From: a virus
Taxonomy: Duplodnaviria; Caudoviricetes
Reading direction: 5' to 3' (one strand)
IMG/VR virus record: IMGVR_UViG_3300047557_002530
DNA: 64,000 nucleotides
How positions within the stretch are numbered: the stretch's first letter is position 1; each line of letters starts with the position of its first letter. Position numbers and translations under genes: made by a program. The notes beneath the pieces were generated by a model. That model had not been told where the DNA came from and ran no database searches. It saw nothing but the letters and a program-made list of their open reading frames with translations. Of this stretch, positions 3,434 to 26,787 are shown in pieces.

Positions 3434-4293
3434 TGAAACTTTACAACTGTAAATATGTTGTAGCAAAAGGAACAACCGGTAGATATGCCGGTTGTGATTT
3501 ACTTGCTCATCCAGAGATTAATGAATTGTATTGTCTCTGGAATTGTGGTTTTTATTCAAATGAATTTCAAGTTTTTAATTCTCTTCTTGTCCTTTTGAAA
3601 CATGGAATTATTCCAGAAAGAATAGATTATTCCTTGGGATATCGTCATTTTAAGAAAGATCCAAATCAAGACATTTACTCTGATTTTCATAAAATTGATG
3701 ATAAAATAGATCTAGATTTATTTGTCGATATTCCCCTTCCTGATTCCAATAAATGTCAATTTGATCTTTATCGTTTTGATGTTTATAATAAAATTAAAGA
3801 TAGATTTTTTGGACCAAGTGATCTTATTTTAGAGAGAAAAAATATCTTGATTGATAAGTATAAATTTGATCCACAGAAAACTATTTCAGTTTTATACAGA
3901 GGAACTGATAAATCTACTGAGTTACAATTAGGATCTCCAACAGAATATTTGAAAGTTGTAAAGAATATTTTAAAAGACAACCCAAATTTTAAAGTTCTTT
4001 TGCAAACAGATCAGACTCAAGTTATTCAATATTTTTATGATCAACTTGGTGATATACTAATTACCTTTGAAGAAACTCCATCAACAGCATCAAATAAAGT
4101 TATTTGGAGTTTGATGGAACAGTCAGGCAAAGATTCTATTGATTGGTCTCAGTGGTTTGATGCAGCATTAAGATGTGTATCTGAATGTAAATATCTTGTA
4201 AACCATACAGGTAATGTCGCATTTTTTGCTAATTTATATCGAGGAAATGTAGATAAAGTCTATCAATTTAATGAAAATGGAGTTCTAATATGA
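3433..4293 (+). CDS. putative glycosyltransferase (NodZ/O-fucosyltransferase-like fold)
   Basis: SVLYRGTDK motif, LLQTDQ, C-terminal 'ECKYLVNHTGN' pattern. Confidence 0.55.
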   Translation: MKLYNCKYVVAKGTTGRYAGCDLLAHPEINELYCLWNCGFYSNEFQVFNSLLVLLKHGIIPERIDYSLGYRHFKKDPNQDIYSDFHKIDDKIDLDLFVDIPLPDSNKCQFDLYRFDVYNKIKDRFFGPSDLILERKNILIDKYKFDPQKTISVLYRGTDKSTELQLGSPTEYLKVVKNILKDNPNFKVLLQTDQTQVIQYFYDQLGDILITFEETPSTASNKVIWSLMEQSGKDSIDWSQWFDAALRCVSECKYLVNHTGNVAFFANLYRGNVDKVYQFNENGVLI

Positions 4294-16718: not shown

Positions 16719-16749
16719 TTCCTAACAAAAATAAGTATAAATGACTACT

Positions 16750-16803
16750 GGGGTGCTTGACACCCCTTTCTTTTTCCTATATAATTGTGTAACAATTCGT
16801 AAT
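16750..16803 (+). promoter_or_regulatory. terminator-embedded sigma70 promoter plus HLR1-like box upstream of hli
   Basis: GGGGTG-CTTGA-CACCCC-T tract; TTGACA(16757)-17-TATAAT(16780); TGTGTAAC-AA-TTCGTAAT (16786-16803). Confidence 0.65.
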
Positions 16804-16812
16804 AAAACGAAA

Positions 16813-17022
16813 ATGACTGTAACTAAAAATGAGTTCGGGCAAATGAATATGTTTGCCAAAGAACCCGCGATGTATATGACCAAGGAAGACCTTGAGCGTT
16901 ATGGCATTGAACCCTATGCAGAAAAAGCGGAGAAAATGAATGGACGCACTGCCATGATTGGATTTGTGTGTGCTATTCTTTCTTATGCTCTTACTGGCAA
17001 ATTGTTCTTTGGTATTGTCTGA
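16813..17022 (+). CDS. hli: high-light inducible protein (Hli)
   Basis: AEKMNGRTAMIGF chlorophyll-binding motif and TGKLFFGI tail; start placed at ATG 16813. Confidence 0.9.
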   Translation: MTVTKNEFGQMNMFAKEPAMYMTKEDLERYGIEPYAEKAEKMNGRTAMIGFVCAILSYALTGKLFFGIV

Positions 17023-17109
17023 TGGGATATTTTGCTCTTTCTTCTATCGTATTGTTCATTATTATTTCAGTAATATATTAATACCTATCATTATAAATAC
17101 AAATAGAAA

Positions 17110-17634
17110 ATGGTAGGTATAAAAATGAGAAATAAAACTTTTAATATTGGCGATAAAGTATGGATGCTGACTATTGTTGGGCATTCTTTATTAGAACAAA
17201 ATAATGGAAGAAAAAGAAATTACTATCAATGTAAATGTGATTGTGGAAGTGAAAAAATAGTTTACGTTGAATCTTACAAACTAAAAAGTGGGAGATTTAA
17301 ATCTTGTGGATGTAAAAGAGCATCCACTGGTGGCATATCTAACACTAAAAAGTATAGAATGTGGAAATCTGCACAAGAGCGTGCTATTAAAAAAGGATTA
17401 GAATTTTCTATACGAGTGGAAGATATTGAAATACCAAAAACTTGCCCTTTATTGAACATAACACTCATCGAAGGTGATAGAGAATGTACTCCTTCACTTG
17501 ATAGAATTGATAGTAAAAAAGGATATACTCCAGACAATGTGTGGGTTATATCTCATAGAGCAAATCAAATAAAAAATGATGCTACACTTGAAGAATTAAA
17601 ACTCATAACAGAAAACCTATCAAAAATAACTTGA
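17110..17634 (+). CDS. free-standing HNH/His-Me-type homing endonuclease
   Basis: CKCDCG...SCGC, CPLL, SLDRIDSKKGYTPDNVWVISHRANQIK; TATAAATA at 17092-17099. Confidence 0.8.
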   Translation: MVGIKMRNKTFNIGDKVWMLTIVGHSLLEQNNGRKRNYYQCKCDCGSEKIVYVESYKLKSGRFKSCGCKRASTGGISNTKKYRMWKSAQERAIKKGLEFSIRVEDIEIPKTCPLLNITLIEGDRECTPSLDRIDSKKGYTPDNVWVISHRANQIKNDATLEELKLITENLSKIT

Positions 17635-17636
17635 CA

Positions 17637-17723
17637 ATGACTTCACTCTTGTTTACAATGACATCCGTTGCCTTCTTCGTTCTGTTGGCAGCATCCGTTG
17701 AAAAACTTTGCGAGACTTACTAA
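17637..17723 (+). CDS. 28-aa hydrophobic peptide upstream of petF
   Basis: [33 protein letters not shown] overlap with the petF start. Confidence 0.5.
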
Positions 17724-18016
17724 TGGCTACTTTTAACGTCACTCTCCAATCTCCCGATGGCACTGAAACCACTATCGAATGTGCTGATGACCAGTACATC
17801 CTTGAAGCAGCAGAAGAGGCAGGTGTTGACCTCCCTTCATCGTGTAAAGCAGGCGCTTGCTCCGCTTGTGCAGGAAAACTCATCTCTGGTACAGTTGACA
17901 ATGAAGAACAGTCGTTCCTTGATGATGACCAACAAGCAGAAGGTTGGGTTCTCACTTGCGTTGCTTATCCCACAAGTGATTGTGTAATTCTCACCGAACA
18001 GGAAGAGAATCTGTGA
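17723..18016 (+). CDS. petF: plant-type [2Fe-2S] ferredoxin
   Basis: [15 protein letters not shown] (CxxxxCxxC) and [12 protein letters not shown]. Confidence 0.96.
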
Positions 18017-22254: not shown

Positions 22255-22683
22255 ATGAAAACTTGCAACATTTGTGGAGAAACGAAATCACTTGATGAGT
22301 ATTATATCAATAATTTTGGATACCCTCACGGTAAATGTAAAAAGTGCTATGTTAAAAAACAGCAAGAAAAATATGACCCAATGAAAAAAAGAAACGAAAA
22401 CTTAAAAAGATGTTATGGAATAACACTCCAAGAATATAATGAAATGTTAGATAATCAAAATGGTAAATGTGCCACTTGTGGAACTACTGAACCAGGAGGT
22501 AGAAAATCTGGTAGGGGCGGTGGTGCTGATGTATTTGTAGTAGATCACTGCCACGATACTGGTAAAGTTAGAGGTCTTCTTTGTCATAGTTGTAATAGGG
22601 CTATGGGACTATTAGGAGATAATGTAAGCGTTATTGAAAGTATGATTAAATACCTTGAGCAGCACGAAATTAATGTCTCATAA
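22255..22683 (+). CDS. Endonuclease VII-family homing endonuclease (F-CphI-like)
   Basis: CNIC...CKKC, YGIT..EY, CATC, VDHCHDTGKVRGLLCHSCN; position just 3' of psbA. Confidence 0.88.
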   Translation: MKTCNICGETKSLDEYYINNFGYPHGKCKKCYVKKQQEKYDPMKKRNENLKRCYGITLQEYNEMLDNQNGKCATCGTTEPGGRKSGRGGGADVFVVDHCHDTGKVRGLLCHSCNRAMGLLGDNVSVIESMIKYLEQHEINVS

Positions 22684-22795
22684 TACTCAACACGAACCTA
22701 TGCCTAACTGGGTAATCTGGGTAGGCGTAGGTATGATGGTATTTACGGTTCTTGTTTTTGTCTTATTCACTCTTGGGCAAATTTACTGGGGATAA
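22673..22795 (+). CDS. 40-aa single-TM peptide
   Basis: MSHNTQHEPMPNWVIWVGVGMMVFTVLVFVLFTLGQIYWG*. Confidence 0.55.
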   Translation: MSHNTQHEPMPNWVIWVGVGMMVFTVLVFVLFTLGQIYWG

Positions 22796-22863
22796 GTGCT
22801 AATACTCATTGACTCTTATTATGAAGTATTGTAAACTAAATATGAGAAATCACATAGGAGGCT

Positions 22864-23010
22864 ATGACTTCTTCAACACTTTCACAACCAATTCAACAAA
22901 GGGGGTGGTTTGATGTCCTGGATGACTGGCTTAAACGAGATCGCTTTGTATTTGTGGGTTGGTCTGGACTATTACTTTTTCCCACTGCTTATTTGGCCCT
23001 TGACTGGTAG
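22864..23010 (+). pseudogene. psbD: truncated 5' copy of psbD (46 homologous codons, then stop)
   Basis: [48 protein letters not shown]; RBS AGGAGG. Confidence 0.93.
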
Positions 23011-23144
23011 GACTGCTGAATGACTTTTCTGGGATTGTATCTAATCTTTATTGGTGTGAAGGGATTGTTTAGAGATTTACAGAGATACAGAGAACAAACT
23101 GATAATAGGTAAAAATATAAAAGACACTTTCTAAACTGGAACAG

Positions 23145-23179
23145 GGGCACTTCGCAGGTGCCCTTTTTGATGGTATAAT
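23145..23179 (+). promoter_or_regulatory. hairpin/T-tract overlapping an early-type promoter
   Basis: GGGCAC-TTCGCAG-GTGCCC-TTTTT; TTCGCA(23151)-17-TATAAT(23174). Confidence 0.55.
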
Positions 23180-23203
23180 ACTCTCATATACAAAGAGTTT
23201 CAA

Positions 23204-23599
23204 ATGCTAAAAACTAAAACTGTAAAGATAGTAAGTGTGAGTGATTGGGATGACTTTGTAATCCTTATCTATGGAAAGCATTACAGTTTTCAACAACAAG
23301 ATGGGTGTAAATCAAGAGGAACTGCTTATTTTACTGTTCCAAATCAATATGATGCGGAAGAGTTTGATAGTGAGGCAACTACAATCCCATTTGAAGTTAA
23401 TGGTGAAGAAATGGGTGTGAGTTTTGAAACTTGGTTGAATACAAATTTGGAGGATACTGCTTCACACTTTGAATCTGATTGGGAGAATAAGTTGTTCTGG
23501 GAAAGGAATTTTTATCCAGATGTAAACACAATTGTTTGGGACTTATACAAACGAGGATTGCTTGAAGAAGGTGAATATATGATTGATATTGATTGGTGA
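23204..23599 (+). CDS. hypothetical phage protein (cargo inside the psbD insertion)
   Basis: 131-aa acidic ORF with its own promoter. Confidence 0.75.
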   Translation: MLKTKTVKIVSVSDWDDFVILIYGKHYSFQQQDGCKSRGTAYFTVPNQYDAEEFDSEATTIPFEVNGEEMGVSFETWLNTNLEDTASHFESDWENKLFWERNFYPDVNTIVWDLYKRGLLEEGEYMIDIDW

Positions 23600-23660
23600 C
23601 TAAAAAGTAAAAATATTCATTTGTATAAATAATAATGTAGTTAACACAGTAGTAGTAAGA

Positions 23661-24242
23661 ATGAAACATAAGCACCATATTATTCCAAGACATATGGGTG
23701 GTAGTGATGACCCATCAAATCTTATTGAACTGACTGTGGAAGAACACGCAGAGGCACACAGAAAGTTGTGGGAGCAATATGGTAATATCAAAGATTATTG
23801 TGCTTGGAAAGGTTTAGAAGGAACTATTGGTAAAGAAGAGATTGTAAGGTTGCTGATGGACCCAACTGGAAGAGTTCATACAGAAGAAACCAAGAAGAAA
23901 ATGAGTGAGGCACATAAAGGCAAACCAAAGCATACACCTGAAAGTAAAGAAAAAATAAGTGAAGCAAGAAAAGGAAAGCCTTTGAGTGAGGAGCATAAAA
24001 GAAAAATAGGTGAGGCAGGTTTAGGTAATAAAAGATGTCTTGGAAATAAACTAACAGAAGAGCACAAAGAAAAACTTTCTAAAAGTATGAAAGGAAATAA
24101 AAATGCTTGTGGTCCTCAAAAAGTTAGTGAAGAAGCAAAGAAAAATAGAAGTGAAGCAACCAAAGAAAGATGGAGAAAATATAGAGAACAAAAAGGATTT
24201 GACCCTAACAAACCTATTGATGGTAGATACTCTAAAATATAG
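23661..24242 (+). CDS. HNH-type homing endonuclease with multiple NUMOD3 repeats
   Basis: [31 protein letters not shown]; repeats [48 protein letters not shown]; TATAAATA at 23624. Confidence 0.88.
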
Positions 24243-24342
24243 TGCCCGCAAGGGCACCTGCCGAAGGCAGTAAGTATAAATACACTTCCCTTTTTATCCA
24301 GTTTCCATTACAATAAATATGTAAAGTAATGTAAAGGAGGCT

Positions 24343-25407
24343 ATGACTTCTTCTGTTTTACAGACACCCTCCCAATCACAGCGTGGATGGTTTGATGTCC
24401 TTGATGATTGGTTGAAAAGGGACAGATTTGTGTTCGTAGGTTGGTCTGGCCTACTTTTATTTCCAACAGCATACCTCGCACTTGGTGGGTGGCTTACTGG
24501 TATTACATTTATCACTAGTTGGTATACACACGGTATTGCTTCAAGTTTTTTAGAAGGTTGTAATTTCTTAACAGCTGCGTTGAGTACCCCAGCAGATGCT
24601 CTCGGACATTCCCTTCTACTTCTCTGGGGTCCTGAGTCTCAAGGGGATTTCATCAGGTGGTGCCAACTTGGGGGACTCTGGACTTTTGTGGCGCTCCACG
24701 GATCTTTCTCTCTGATTGGATTCATGCTTCGTCAGTTTGAGATTGCTCGTCTTGTAGGCATTCGTCCTTATAATGCTATTGCATTCTCTGGACCCATTGC
24801 GGTCTTTGTGAGTGTCTTCCTGATGTATCCTCTGGGTCAATCCAGTTGGTTCTTTGCACCATCGTTTGGTGTTGCTGCTATCTTCAGGTTCCTTCTGTTC
24901 CTTCAGGGTTTCCACAACTGGACCCTCAACCCCTTCCATATGATGGGAGTTGCTGGTATACTGGGTGGAGCACTGCTCTGTGCTATTCACGGAGCAACCG
25001 TAGAAAACACACTATTTGAAGATGGTGACCAAGCAAATACCTTCAAAGCATTTGAACCGACACAGGAAGAAGAGACCTACTCTATGGTTACTGCTAACAG
25101 ATTCTGGTCTCAAATCTTCGGTATTGCGTTTAGTAATAAGCGTTGGCTTCACTTTTTTATGCTATTTGTTCCTGTTATGGGTTTGTGGACTTCCAGCATC
25201 GGTATCATTGGTCTTGCCCTTAATCTTCGTGCTTATGATTTTGTAAGTCAGGAGATTCGTGCTGCAGAAGATCCGGAATTTGAGACCTTCGTAACAAAGA
25301 ACATATTATTGAATGAGGGAATTCGTGCTTGGATGGCACCTGTAGACCAACCTGGAGCAAACTTTGTATTTCCAGAGGAAGTTTTGCCTCGTGGAAATGC
25401 TTTATGA
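24343..25407 (+). CDS. psbD: photosystem II D2 protein with divergent 5' and 3' ends
   Basis: [23 protein letters not shown] ... [11 protein letters not shown] ... [10 protein letters not shown]. Confidence 0.99.
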
Positions 25408-25436
25408 TATAAATAATTCTATCGTGCGGTAGAATT

Positions 25437-25883
25437 ATGGAAAAGATGGGAATGCTTACCATTCTTGATGAATGGTCTGATAAGGTTCACAGATACTGTA
25501 AAGTTCAGTGTGAATGTGGAACTATAAAAACAGTTCGCAGATCATCTATGAAACCTGGACAAACAGTATCTTGTGGATGTTATAGACGAGAACTTGATAG
25601 AAAGAAGGGGAGAGATCTTCGTTCACCTATGTGGTCTCGGGCAAAATATAGAGCAAAACAAAAGGGTCTGGATTTTAATATCACAAAAGAAGATATTGTT
25701 ATTCCAGACACCTGCCCTTTGTTAGGCACTCCTATGGAATCGCCATCATTAGATCGTATTGATTCTTCCAAAGGATATATCAAAGGTAATGTGTGGGTCA
25801 TCAGTAATAGAGCAAATACTTTAAAAAATGATGCTACATTACAAGAACTCAAAACATTAGTTGAAAATCTGGAGAAACTATGA
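25437..25883 (+). CDS. free-standing HNH/His-Me-type homing endonuclease (paralog of 17110..17634)
   Basis: CECG...SCGC, TCPLL, SLDRIDSSKGYIKGNVWVISNRAN; TATAAATA at 25408 directly after the psbD stop. Confidence 0.82.
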   Translation: MEKMGMLTILDEWSDKVHRYCKVQCECGTIKTVRRSSMKPGQTVSCGCYRRELDRKKGRDLRSPMWSRAKYRAKQKGLDFNITKEDIVIPDTCPLLGTPMESPSLDRIDSSKGYIKGNVWVISNRANTLKNDATLQELKTLVENLEKL

Positions 25884-26026
25884 AAGATACTTCTACAAAT
25901 CAACTTCCACCAAATCAAAAATACATTGGGTGGAAAGAAGTAAATGAAAAAGAATTTGATGAGTTGTTTCCTCCCATCCAAAAGAAAAATCGTGAGGAAG
26001 TTCTACCGCGAGGTAATGCACTCTAA
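25880..26026 (+). pseudogene. 48-aa ORF ending in the D2 C-terminal decapeptide (psbD 3' remnant at 25994-26026)
   Basis: ...[15 protein letters not shown], encoded GAG GAA GTT CTA CCG CGA GGT AAT GCA CTC TAA. Confidence 0.88.
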
Positions 26027-26034
26027 AAATAAAT

Positions 26035-26062
26035 AAAAGGAGTTCTCTGAACTCCTTTTTTT
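26035..26062 (+). terminator. intrinsic terminator following the psbD 3' remnant
   Basis: AAAAGGAGTTC-TCT-GAACTCCTTTT-TTT. Confidence 0.85.
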
Positions 26063-26137
26063 ATGCTCCTTATTCTTATTCTTTTTCAACTCTTTGGAAT
26101 CCTAATGTTTATATTATCTGTTATGCAAGACCTATGA
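26063..26137 (+). CDS. 24-aa hydrophobic peptide
   Basis: MLLILILFQLFGILMFILSVMQDL*, ATGA-coupled to the next ORF. Confidence 0.4.
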   Translation: MLLILILFQLFGILMFILSVMQDL

Positions 26138-26253
26138 TAACTTCTACAACACCATATAAATTGGCAGAGATCATTAGAGATACTTGGCCAAACCTTTACA
26201 GACCGCCAATAAAGACTTATAATCAATCAAAAGCACAAGAAAAGAATGTATGA
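26134..26253 (+). CDS. 39-aa hypothetical peptide
   Basis: MITSTTPYKLAEIIRDTWPNLYRPP...*, overlapping neighbours on both sides. Confidence 0.5.
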   Translation: MITSTTPYKLAEIIRDTWPNLYRPPIKTYNQSKAQEKNV

Positions 26254-26530
26254 CTATTGGGTGGTGACAGACAAAACCACAGGTAGAGTAATCGCTCATT
26301 GCGGGGAAGAGAATGATGCATTGATGTTAGTTGGATTTGATAAAGATAAAAGAAATTATCGTAAACAAAAGTTTATTCTGGATCAGGTCATTACAGTAAC
26401 ATCAACAACAGATAAACAACTTCCTGGTCAATTGGGTTTACCTGCAGCAAAAGAAGAACTTCCTCCTATGGATCTTCAACAACAAGTATGGTTGCCTGAG
26501 GGACAGGGAATTCCAGTTAACGCTAAATAA
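26246..26530 (+). CDS. hypothetical cyanophage protein
   Basis: 94-aa ORF in operon context. Confidence 0.7.
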   Translation: MYDYWVVTDKTTGRVIAHCGEENDALMLVGFDKDKRNYRKQKFILDQVITVTSTTDKQLPGQLGLPAAKEELPPMDLQQQVWLPEGQGIPVNAK

Positions 26531-26550
26531 CTTTCAGTTTTATAACAATT

Positions 26551-26787
26551 ATGAAATTTACAGTTTATTCAAAAGACGGTTGCCCATATTGCACAAAGGT
26601 TCAACAAGTGCTAGAGTTGGCACAACTACAATACGTAGTCTACAAATTGAATACTGATTTTACTCGTGATGAGTTTTATGCTGAGTTTGGAGAAGGTTCT
26701 ACCTTTCCTCAAGTAATTATTAATGACAAACACATTGGTGGGTGTTCGGATACCGTTCAATATCTACAGGAGCAAAAATTAGTTTAA
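26551..26787 (+). CDS. glutaredoxin
   Basis: GCPYC active site, TFPQV, IGG. Confidence 0.93.
   Translation: MKFTVYSKDGCPYCTKVQQVLELAQLQYVVYKLNTDFTRDEFYAEFGEGSTFPQVIINDKHIGGCSDTVQYLQEQKLV

Follow-up and report, generated by a model that had tools for sequence, protein, structure and literature searches.

A nuclease cassette with a substitute psbD tail in a T4-like freshwater cyanophage: a probable homing element in a photosystem gene

Described systems that resemble the psbD locus

In fungal mitochondria, mORF elements form gene hybrids, which have been described for atp6 of Allomyces macrogynus and for atp6, atp9, cox2 and nad3 of Glomus sp. (PMC3630166). In these hybrids an endonuclease ORF lies in the 3' part of the gene, the gene receives an in-frame substitute C-terminus and the native C-terminus is stranded downstream. 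The native C-terminus is also closer to element-free relatives than the inserted one, and the differences are largely synonymous (PMC3630166). The psbD cassette described here shares these features. It differs from the mitochondrial hybrids, which carry LAGLIDADG or GIY-YIG ORFs, in having a predicted HNH-superfamily nuclease and a late-promoter motif, and in being found in a host-derived photosynthesis gene of a T4-like cyanophage. The duplicated piece is only ten codons long, and sister elements use the stranded tail as the C-terminus and stop of the nuclease. With an in-frame substitute and a native tail nearer to element-free relatives, but no LAGLIDADG or GIY-YIG organelle ORF, the psbD cassette works like a mORF hybrid and is not a member of that class.

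T4-type phages are known for intronless homing with co-conversion, which involves the seg and mob genes (PMC2988022). As in that group, the psbD nuclease gene is outside any intron or intein, lies between conserved genes, is variably present, is inherited together with flanking polymorphisms and is associated with phage-type promoter motifs. The free-standing enzymes of T4 are encoded by intergenic genes and cut hundreds to thousands of bp away (PMC2988022), whereas the gene at psbD is inside a coding sequence and its linkage is lost within about 8-27 nt on both sides. Tight linkage of this kind has been described for intron-encoded enzymes. The linkage at psbD is similar, but the intron is absent and the frame is rescued by the gene end that the cassette carries.

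Two further phage systems are relevant. F-CphI is a nuclease with an Endo VII motif that is encoded beside psbA in cyanophage S-PM2 (PMC6083498). The two loci have in common a selfish nuclease gene adjoining a cyanophage photosystem gene and differ in nuclease family and in target, which is psbA for F-CphI. The window, which is the whole 64,000-nt stretch of DNA analysed here, also has an Endo VII-family ORF after psbA. We know of no duplicated gene end described for F-CphI. The other system is mobE, a free-standing HNH gene whose insertion divides nrdA of phage Aeh1 into two functional parts (Friedrich et al. 2007, cited in PMC2988022). Both mobE and the psbD nuclease gene are free-standing HNH-type genes within a phage coding sequence, and the function of the host gene is kept in both cases. 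However, nrdA is expressed as two pieces, while psbD is a whole gene with a supplied replacement end and a redundant native end. A search of full-text literature outside subscription journals, with PMC10448857 included, found no description of a substitute-tail layout in phages. Since the same logic is found in fungal mitochondria, the layout seems to be a case of convergence.

The window belongs to a 92-kb IMG/VR viral contig, and its source is a T4-like freshwater cyanophage. The stretch is also present in freshwater metagenomes of several studies. It was compared with about 170 related viral contigs (loci numbered with L) and with metagenome runs (X4 and X11). The features of the locus are given in Table 1.

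Table 1. Features of the psbD region, with positions in the window
Feature	Position	Strand	Basis or remark
psbA	ends 22160
Endo VII-family ORF	22255-22683		directly 3' of psbA
48-codon psbD 5' stump	22864-23010
ORF of unassigned function	23204-23599
HNH + NUMOD3 nuclease gene	23661-24242
psbD, working copy (D2, 354 aa)	24343-25407	+	Pfam Photo_RC, E 5.7e-72
Cassette-linked psbD tail, last 14 codons + TGA	25364-25407	+	identity to carriers vs non-carriers
Inserted copy of the ten duplicated codons	25375-25404	+
Whole inserted segment, 619 nt	25375-25993	+	its removal gives the nuclease-free layout
TATAAATA motif (T4-type late-promoter consensus)	25408-25415	+
Free-standing nuclease gene, 148 aa	25437-25883	+	PHROG and fold matches
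48-aa chimeric ORF	25880-26026	+	blastp of the N-terminal part; relic at the end
Stranded native psbD tail (relic), ten codons + TAA	25994-26026	+	match to nuclease-free relatives
Terminator hairpin with T-run, native to psbD	26035-26059	+
Small ORF	26134-26253
Small ORF, 94 aa	26246-26530
nrdC	26551-26787

The duplicated psbD tail and its native copy

The last ten residues and the stop of psbD are encoded a second time 619 nt downstream, with TGA at 25375-25407 and TAA at 25994-26026. An earlier note on this DNA had pointed out the repeat, and its description is accurate in all parts. The first three codons are the same; of the other seven sense codons six differ, as does the stop. The two copies differ at 9 of 33 bases, and all of the differences are synonymous. 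The late-promoter motif lies between the copies and adjoins the psbD stop. A 48-aa ORF, whose ATG overlaps the TGA of the nuclease ORF (ATGA), ends in frame with the second copy, and behind this copy is a terminator-like hairpin with 11 pairs and a T-run. By our own arithmetic, the chance of an exact repeat of ten residues plus stop is about 20^-10 per position, with about 1.3e5 six-frame positions available. An assembly artefact or chimera is ruled out, as independent metagenome contigs cross the junction (run X4, 1345 nt, covering 25242-26586; run X11, 743 nt, covering 25324-26066). The same junction is also found in three other IMG/VR contigs.

The TATAAATA motif behind psbD ends 21 nt 5' of the nuclease start codon. 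There are 11 matches to the motif in the window compared with 5.7 expected. Eight are on the + strand, and four of these (17092, 23624, 24275 and 25408) are located just 5' of three nuclease genes or of the rebuilt psbD. The copy at 25408-25415 may act as a late promoter, and the native psbD hairpin would now terminate the transcript of the nuclease gene and the 48-aa ORF. Contigs from RNA libraries cover 25219-25766 and 25802-25952, which include the end of psbD, the nuclease gene and 73 nt at the start of the 48-aa ORF. These contigs are compatible with expression, although contigs alone are no proof of transcription.

The earlier note took the downstream copy to be the original gene end. 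It predicted that nuclease-free relatives would carry the 25994-26062 version right after ...FVFP, with the same terminator. This is what was found, and the opposite outcome, i.e. relatives with the 25375-25407 codons and without the downstream terminator context, was not seen. A search with the 94-aa downstream protein gave 80 related loci, and in many of them psbD is followed directly by the same small ORFs. Nuclease-free loci have 107-109 nt between the psbD stop and the next ORF, and the window has 107 nt between the relic stop and that ORF. The ends of nuclease-free psbD genes are of the relic type (in most cases ...GCA-CTC-TAA), and behind them lie the same A/T-rich spacer and hairpin. 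The relic is identical to the real psbD end of the nuclease-free loci L004 and L035 (33/33, or 68/69 with the next 36 nt), while the substitute tail matches L004 at only 24 of 33 positions. The near-isogenic locus L055 has the upstream cassette at 100% amino acid identity and no downstream nuclease. Both copies in the window can be aligned with its only psbD end, and the alignment resumes at 25994 and continues to 26998. Since removing 25375-25993 restores the nuclease-free layout, including the 107-nt gap, this stretch is the inserted piece.

The sampled loci comprise 68 distinct psbD 3' contexts. A member of the nuclease family is found right after psbD in 37 of them and 16 are nuclease-free (gap of 29-143 nt), in a sample that is biased towards carriers. 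The nuclease gene is therefore present or absent at one fixed locus among syntenic relatives, as is typical of a free-standing homing endonuclease gene. In GenBank phage records, psbD reaches at most 81% identity and no copy of the cassette was found; the best relative of the nuclease in these records is from S-SKS1 (51%).

Several relatives show other changes at this locus. The same downstream genes are found with psbA but without psbD at the locus in L006, L011, L036 and L070-L072. In the nuclease-free L045 (about 3740-3830) the psbD tail is divergent, and a native stump of four codons (N-A-L-stop) lies 24 nt behind it, ahead of the usual terminator. This stump is either the footprint of a lost cassette or the result of gene replacement by illegitimate recombination. 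In L007, L008, L037, L044, L047, L056, L057, L061, L076 and others, other inserts of 230-1440 nt, among them NUMOD3-type nuclease genes, occupy the spacer between psbD and the next ORF. The 3' flank of psbD is a general insertion hotspot. The D2 protein of the window also has an unusual Gly-Ala pair (25348-25362, DQPGANF). Since the pair is also found in the nuclease-free L013-L018 (DQPGANFQFP), it is a natural allele and not a by-product of the cassette.

Edges of the cassette, its joins and its products

The carriers are relatives from the nuclease search with 87-97% identity, and all of them have the gene right behind psbD with the same 29-nt spacer. The last 45 nt of psbD in the window match carriers at 39-44 positions and nuclease-free alleles at 28-34 positions. 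The spacer is the same at 28 of 29 positions among carriers. The 129 nt further upstream in psbD are 70-79% identical to carriers, which is no closer than to nuclease-free alleles (70-80% for both groups). Over the last ~44 nt of psbD and the spacer, identity is 87-98% among carriers compared with 62-76% for non-carriers, which is the pattern of co-conversion. In the alignment, the left start of the shared tract varies from 25348 to 25364 by lineage. The X4 contig is identical to the window over 25348-26586, and its 19 differing sites are all in 25272-25347. This contig and the window have at least 590 nt of right flank in common, so the recipient's right side was not retained in all transfers.

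The same layout could arise in one genome if a short stretch of psbD was duplicated in place, an intergenic nuclease gene landed later between the copies, and the copies then drifted synonymously. However, the upstream tail is nearly identical among carriers whose psbD bodies are quite different, and it is tied to the nuclease gene. The complete agreement of the downstream tail with a nuclease-free relative (33/33) also speaks against duplication in place, and drift limited to synonymous sites is unexpected in an untranslated or non-functional copy. This is the least probable of the explanations considered here.

The right edge is exact. There are no mismatches over the 172 nt up to 25993 when the window is compared with L096/L098, which are alike, and with L097. 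Both diverge from the window from the ninth base of the relic onwards (23/33 and 28/33, respectively) and then continue with downstream sequence of their own. Two native contexts are found behind relics. One has TAA, an A/T-rich run and the hairpin of the window; the other has TGA, TATACT and a different hairpin. Both contexts are also found directly behind nuclease-free psbD (L004 and others; L062 and L079). Since the relics continue into the native contexts of the recipients, the relic and the DNA that follows it belong to each recipient genome. Around the insertion point, linkage is lost over about 8 nt on the right side and over 11-27 nt on the left side. The mobile segment runs from about 25364 or 25375 to 25993, and the alignments show the cassette as a unit that is found in different genomes at one exact position.

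Four types of right-hand join are seen among the relatives. In the first (L086, L088-L092), the stop of the nuclease ORF lies within the native A/T-rich run that comes just past the old psbD stop, and the ten-codon relic is missing. In the second (L093, L094, L099, L100/L102 and L180), the nuclease ORF lacks its last residues and runs in frame into the relic, with five distinct relic alleles. The third is that of the window, L096/L098 and L097, in which the nuclease stop is kept and is followed by a 111-nt piece and then by the relic. In the fourth, a nuclease relative with 58% identity is followed about 470 nt later by a 28-codon psbD relic (L115, 2939-3022). The second and third joins differ, yet the relic begins at the same codon in both, and the fused join of the five sister elements is probably a second, independent join. 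A scan of metagenomes for the junction word gave only one contig that was already in the set and one chance match, and the pattern of the fused junction gave nine matches, of which three are due to chance. The relic of the window is the only one that is exactly the same as a sampled native tail; the others are 1-5 nt from the nearest one.

Another possibility is ordinary illegitimate recombination, with the nuclease gene as a mere passenger. The replaced tail and native stump of L045 suggest that stumps can form without a nuclease, unless the gene was lost from this locus. Against this, several backgrounds have the same junction, and the crossovers lie no more than 8 nt to the right and 11-27 nt to the left of the insertion point, a pattern that points to breaks at this position. 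The nuclease family is also present here in 37 of the 68 psbD 3' contexts, although the sampling is biased, and the same family adjoins other host-derived genes in this genome. Recombination with a passenger gene is thus very improbable, although it is placed ahead of duplication in place.

The nuclease genes of L096 and L097, with 77% overall identity to that of the window, are mosaic. The last ~250 nt at the 3' end are nearly identical to those of the window, while the 5' part, which encodes the Cys-rich N-terminal domain, is from another lineage together with the linked psbD tail and spacer. This mosaic suggests that domains may be swapped between cassettes.

The working psbD is a three-part mosaic, as the earlier note had proposed, and the 5' stump, the identity to L055 and the cassette-linked tail agree on this. 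Native psbD starts in relatives that lack the 5' cassette share 88-94% identity with the 5' stump (22864-23004). In the working gene, the 5' end is identical (141/141) to that of L055, which carries the same HNH/NUMOD3 cassette. Judged by these sequence comparisons, the upstream HNH/NUMOD3 cassette brought in the 5' part of psbD and the downstream cassette the last ~44 nt, with native sequence in the middle. The 5' end (22864-24342) mirrors the 3' end, in that a stranded 48-codon native start is followed by an ORF, the HNH and NUMOD3 gene and the working start with TATAAATA at 24275. In L030 the psbD start is of the cassette type and the nuclease gene is absent.

The 148-aa nuclease matches PHROG 3322 (annotated as endonuclease, E 2.9e-32) and also PHROG 1035 and 374. 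The matching families are annotated as endonuclease, endonuclease VII and HNH, with E values from 2.9e-32 to 8e-13. Sequence searches of Pfam (including the HNH models), NCBIfam and PDB with the nuclease gave no significant match. The predicted model has a pLDDT of 90.6. The top fold matches of residues 58-148 include PacI (Z 6.6), Hpy99I (Z 5.2), Gme HNH (Z 4.7) and McrA (Z 4.1), all of which are middling scores, and Foldseek against PDB returned only PacI (E 0.02). The PHROG and fold matches place the protein in a known homing-endonuclease superfamily. It is predicted to consist of a small Cys-rich barrel at the N-terminus and a beta-beta-alpha-Me domain of the HNH superfamily at the C-terminus. 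When aligned, 22 relatives share a cluster of Cys residues at the N-terminus and the invariant block CPLL...LDRID...GNVWV...N..K. A strict check for the H-N-H motif finds the invariant residues D106, N118 and N127 (LDRID...GN...N), with Asp where the first His is usual, in a compatible fold. This Asp, the middling fold scores and the lack of Pfam, NCBIfam and PDB sequence matches count against a homing enzyme of the HNH superfamily. Nuclease activity, a cut site and self-immunity are presumed for this protein.

An intron-borne nuclease was considered and rejected. No model of a group I or group II intron or of another RNA family matches in 22700-26300, even at E values up to 1. In addition, the psbD ORF is uninterrupted and has a stop of its own 5' of the nuclease gene, and no self-splicing intron or intein surrounds the nuclease ORF.

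The window also has a paralogue of the nuclease (174 aa, 46% identity, 17110-17634). It is located between a high-light-inducible-type gene (16741-17022) and a ferredoxin gene (17708-18016), and a TATAAATA motif at 17092 lies 18 nt 5' of its start.

The 48-aa ORF had been suggested to be either a scar or a mimic of the D2 tail. The scar is favoured over the mimic because the N-terminal part comes from a piece of another gene. Residues 7-44 match residues 60-99 of a 111-aa relative (blastp E 1e-13) in a family of 103-112-aa proteins that are encoded upstream of nrdC in other phages. The 111-aa relative is in turn homologous to the 94-aa gene of the window (E 9e-5). The ORF is thus made up of a start codon created by the nuclease stop, 37 codons of a foreign fragment and the ten-codon psbD relic. 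Residues 7-30 come from a divergent homologue of the gene at 26246-26530, a fragment of which is fused to the relic, and the ORF is most likely a chimeric scar. By our own estimate, its open frame needed two 1-in-3 coincidences. It has no Pfam or PHROG match. The four copies do not differ by a single letter in the 111 nt derived from the element; therefore, selection (dN/dS) on the ORF is not measurable.

The stranded D2 tail could nevertheless be selected as a peptide, as a mimic or tag that interacts, for example, with proteins for the assembly or turnover of photosystem II during infection. Although the nine distinct relic alleles differ at many synonymous sites, eight of them still encode the decapeptide unchanged and a stop, and the tail is the C-terminus of the nuclease itself in five lineages. 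The 48-aa ORF is also translationally coupled (ATGA), and an RNA-library contig covers 25802-25952, although such contigs do not prove transcription. However, the first 37 codons of the ORF are a fragment of an unrelated gene, and any selection on the uniform 111 nt is beyond measurement. The diversity of the relics follows the native contexts of the recipients, as if the tails had recently been captured from working genes. The ninth allele (L097) already has a Gly to Arg change, and close relatives of the nuclease (L086, L088-L092) have no relic at all. A useful peptide is therefore very unlikely, although it ranks first among the alternatives.

Proposed mechanism and its meaning

The locus is very probably explained by a homing cassette of the HNH superfamily in the 3' end of psbD, which brings a substitute tail that keeps psbD intact, displaces the tail of the gene and spreads by cutting and repair. 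The cassette lies in frame between a Pro and a Glu codon, ten codons before the ancestral stop. From left to right it consists of the substitute ten codons and stop, the late-promoter motif, the nuclease gene and the 111-nt foreign fragment of a downstream gene. The substitute tail, which appears to be an allele from another lineage, leaves psbD intact, and the native last ten codons, stop and terminator have been pushed 619 nt downstream. The nuclease may cut nuclease-free psbD at the Pro|Glu boundary or within about 10 nt of it, and repair would then copy the cassette from a co-infecting carrier. The recipient DNA to the right of the cut would be kept, so that the stranded tail would be that of the recipient and the relics would mirror native alleles and be mostly intact. 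A carrier may be protected from its own enzyme by the split site, by the foreign tail or by both. The 48-aa ORF would be a by-product of two joins and not a designed gene.

The earlier note had proposed a second, independent insertion that supplied a recoded 3' end. The insertion and an upstream tail co-inherited with the nuclease are borne out by the relatives; directed recoding is not. Native tails differ among themselves by a mean of 7.2 positions of 33 (range 3-13), and the two copies in the window differ by 9. Since this is only slightly above the native spread, the substitute tail looks like an allele of another lineage, and directed synonymous recoding for immunity is unsupported as stated. 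Nuclease-free alleles almost always have GCA-CTC-TAA, and carriers favour other Leu codons and TGA. The target could include the region of the stop codon, which is still intact in the relic, and this counts against the homing cassette as explained above. The long right flank shared with X4 and the 1-5 nt by which the other relics differ from sampled native tails count against it as well.

Several points follow for cyanophage genomes. psbD is a common marker and a model of host-derived phage genes, and both of its ends can be foreign pieces of mobile elements, which should be masked in cyanophage psbD trees and recombination analyses. Short ORFs beside such cassettes, such as the 48-aa ORF, can be chimeric debris and not genes. 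The natural series of junction types places the probable break point within a few bases. A selfish nuclease gene can inhabit a coding sequence with neither intron nor intein if it brings a spare gene end.
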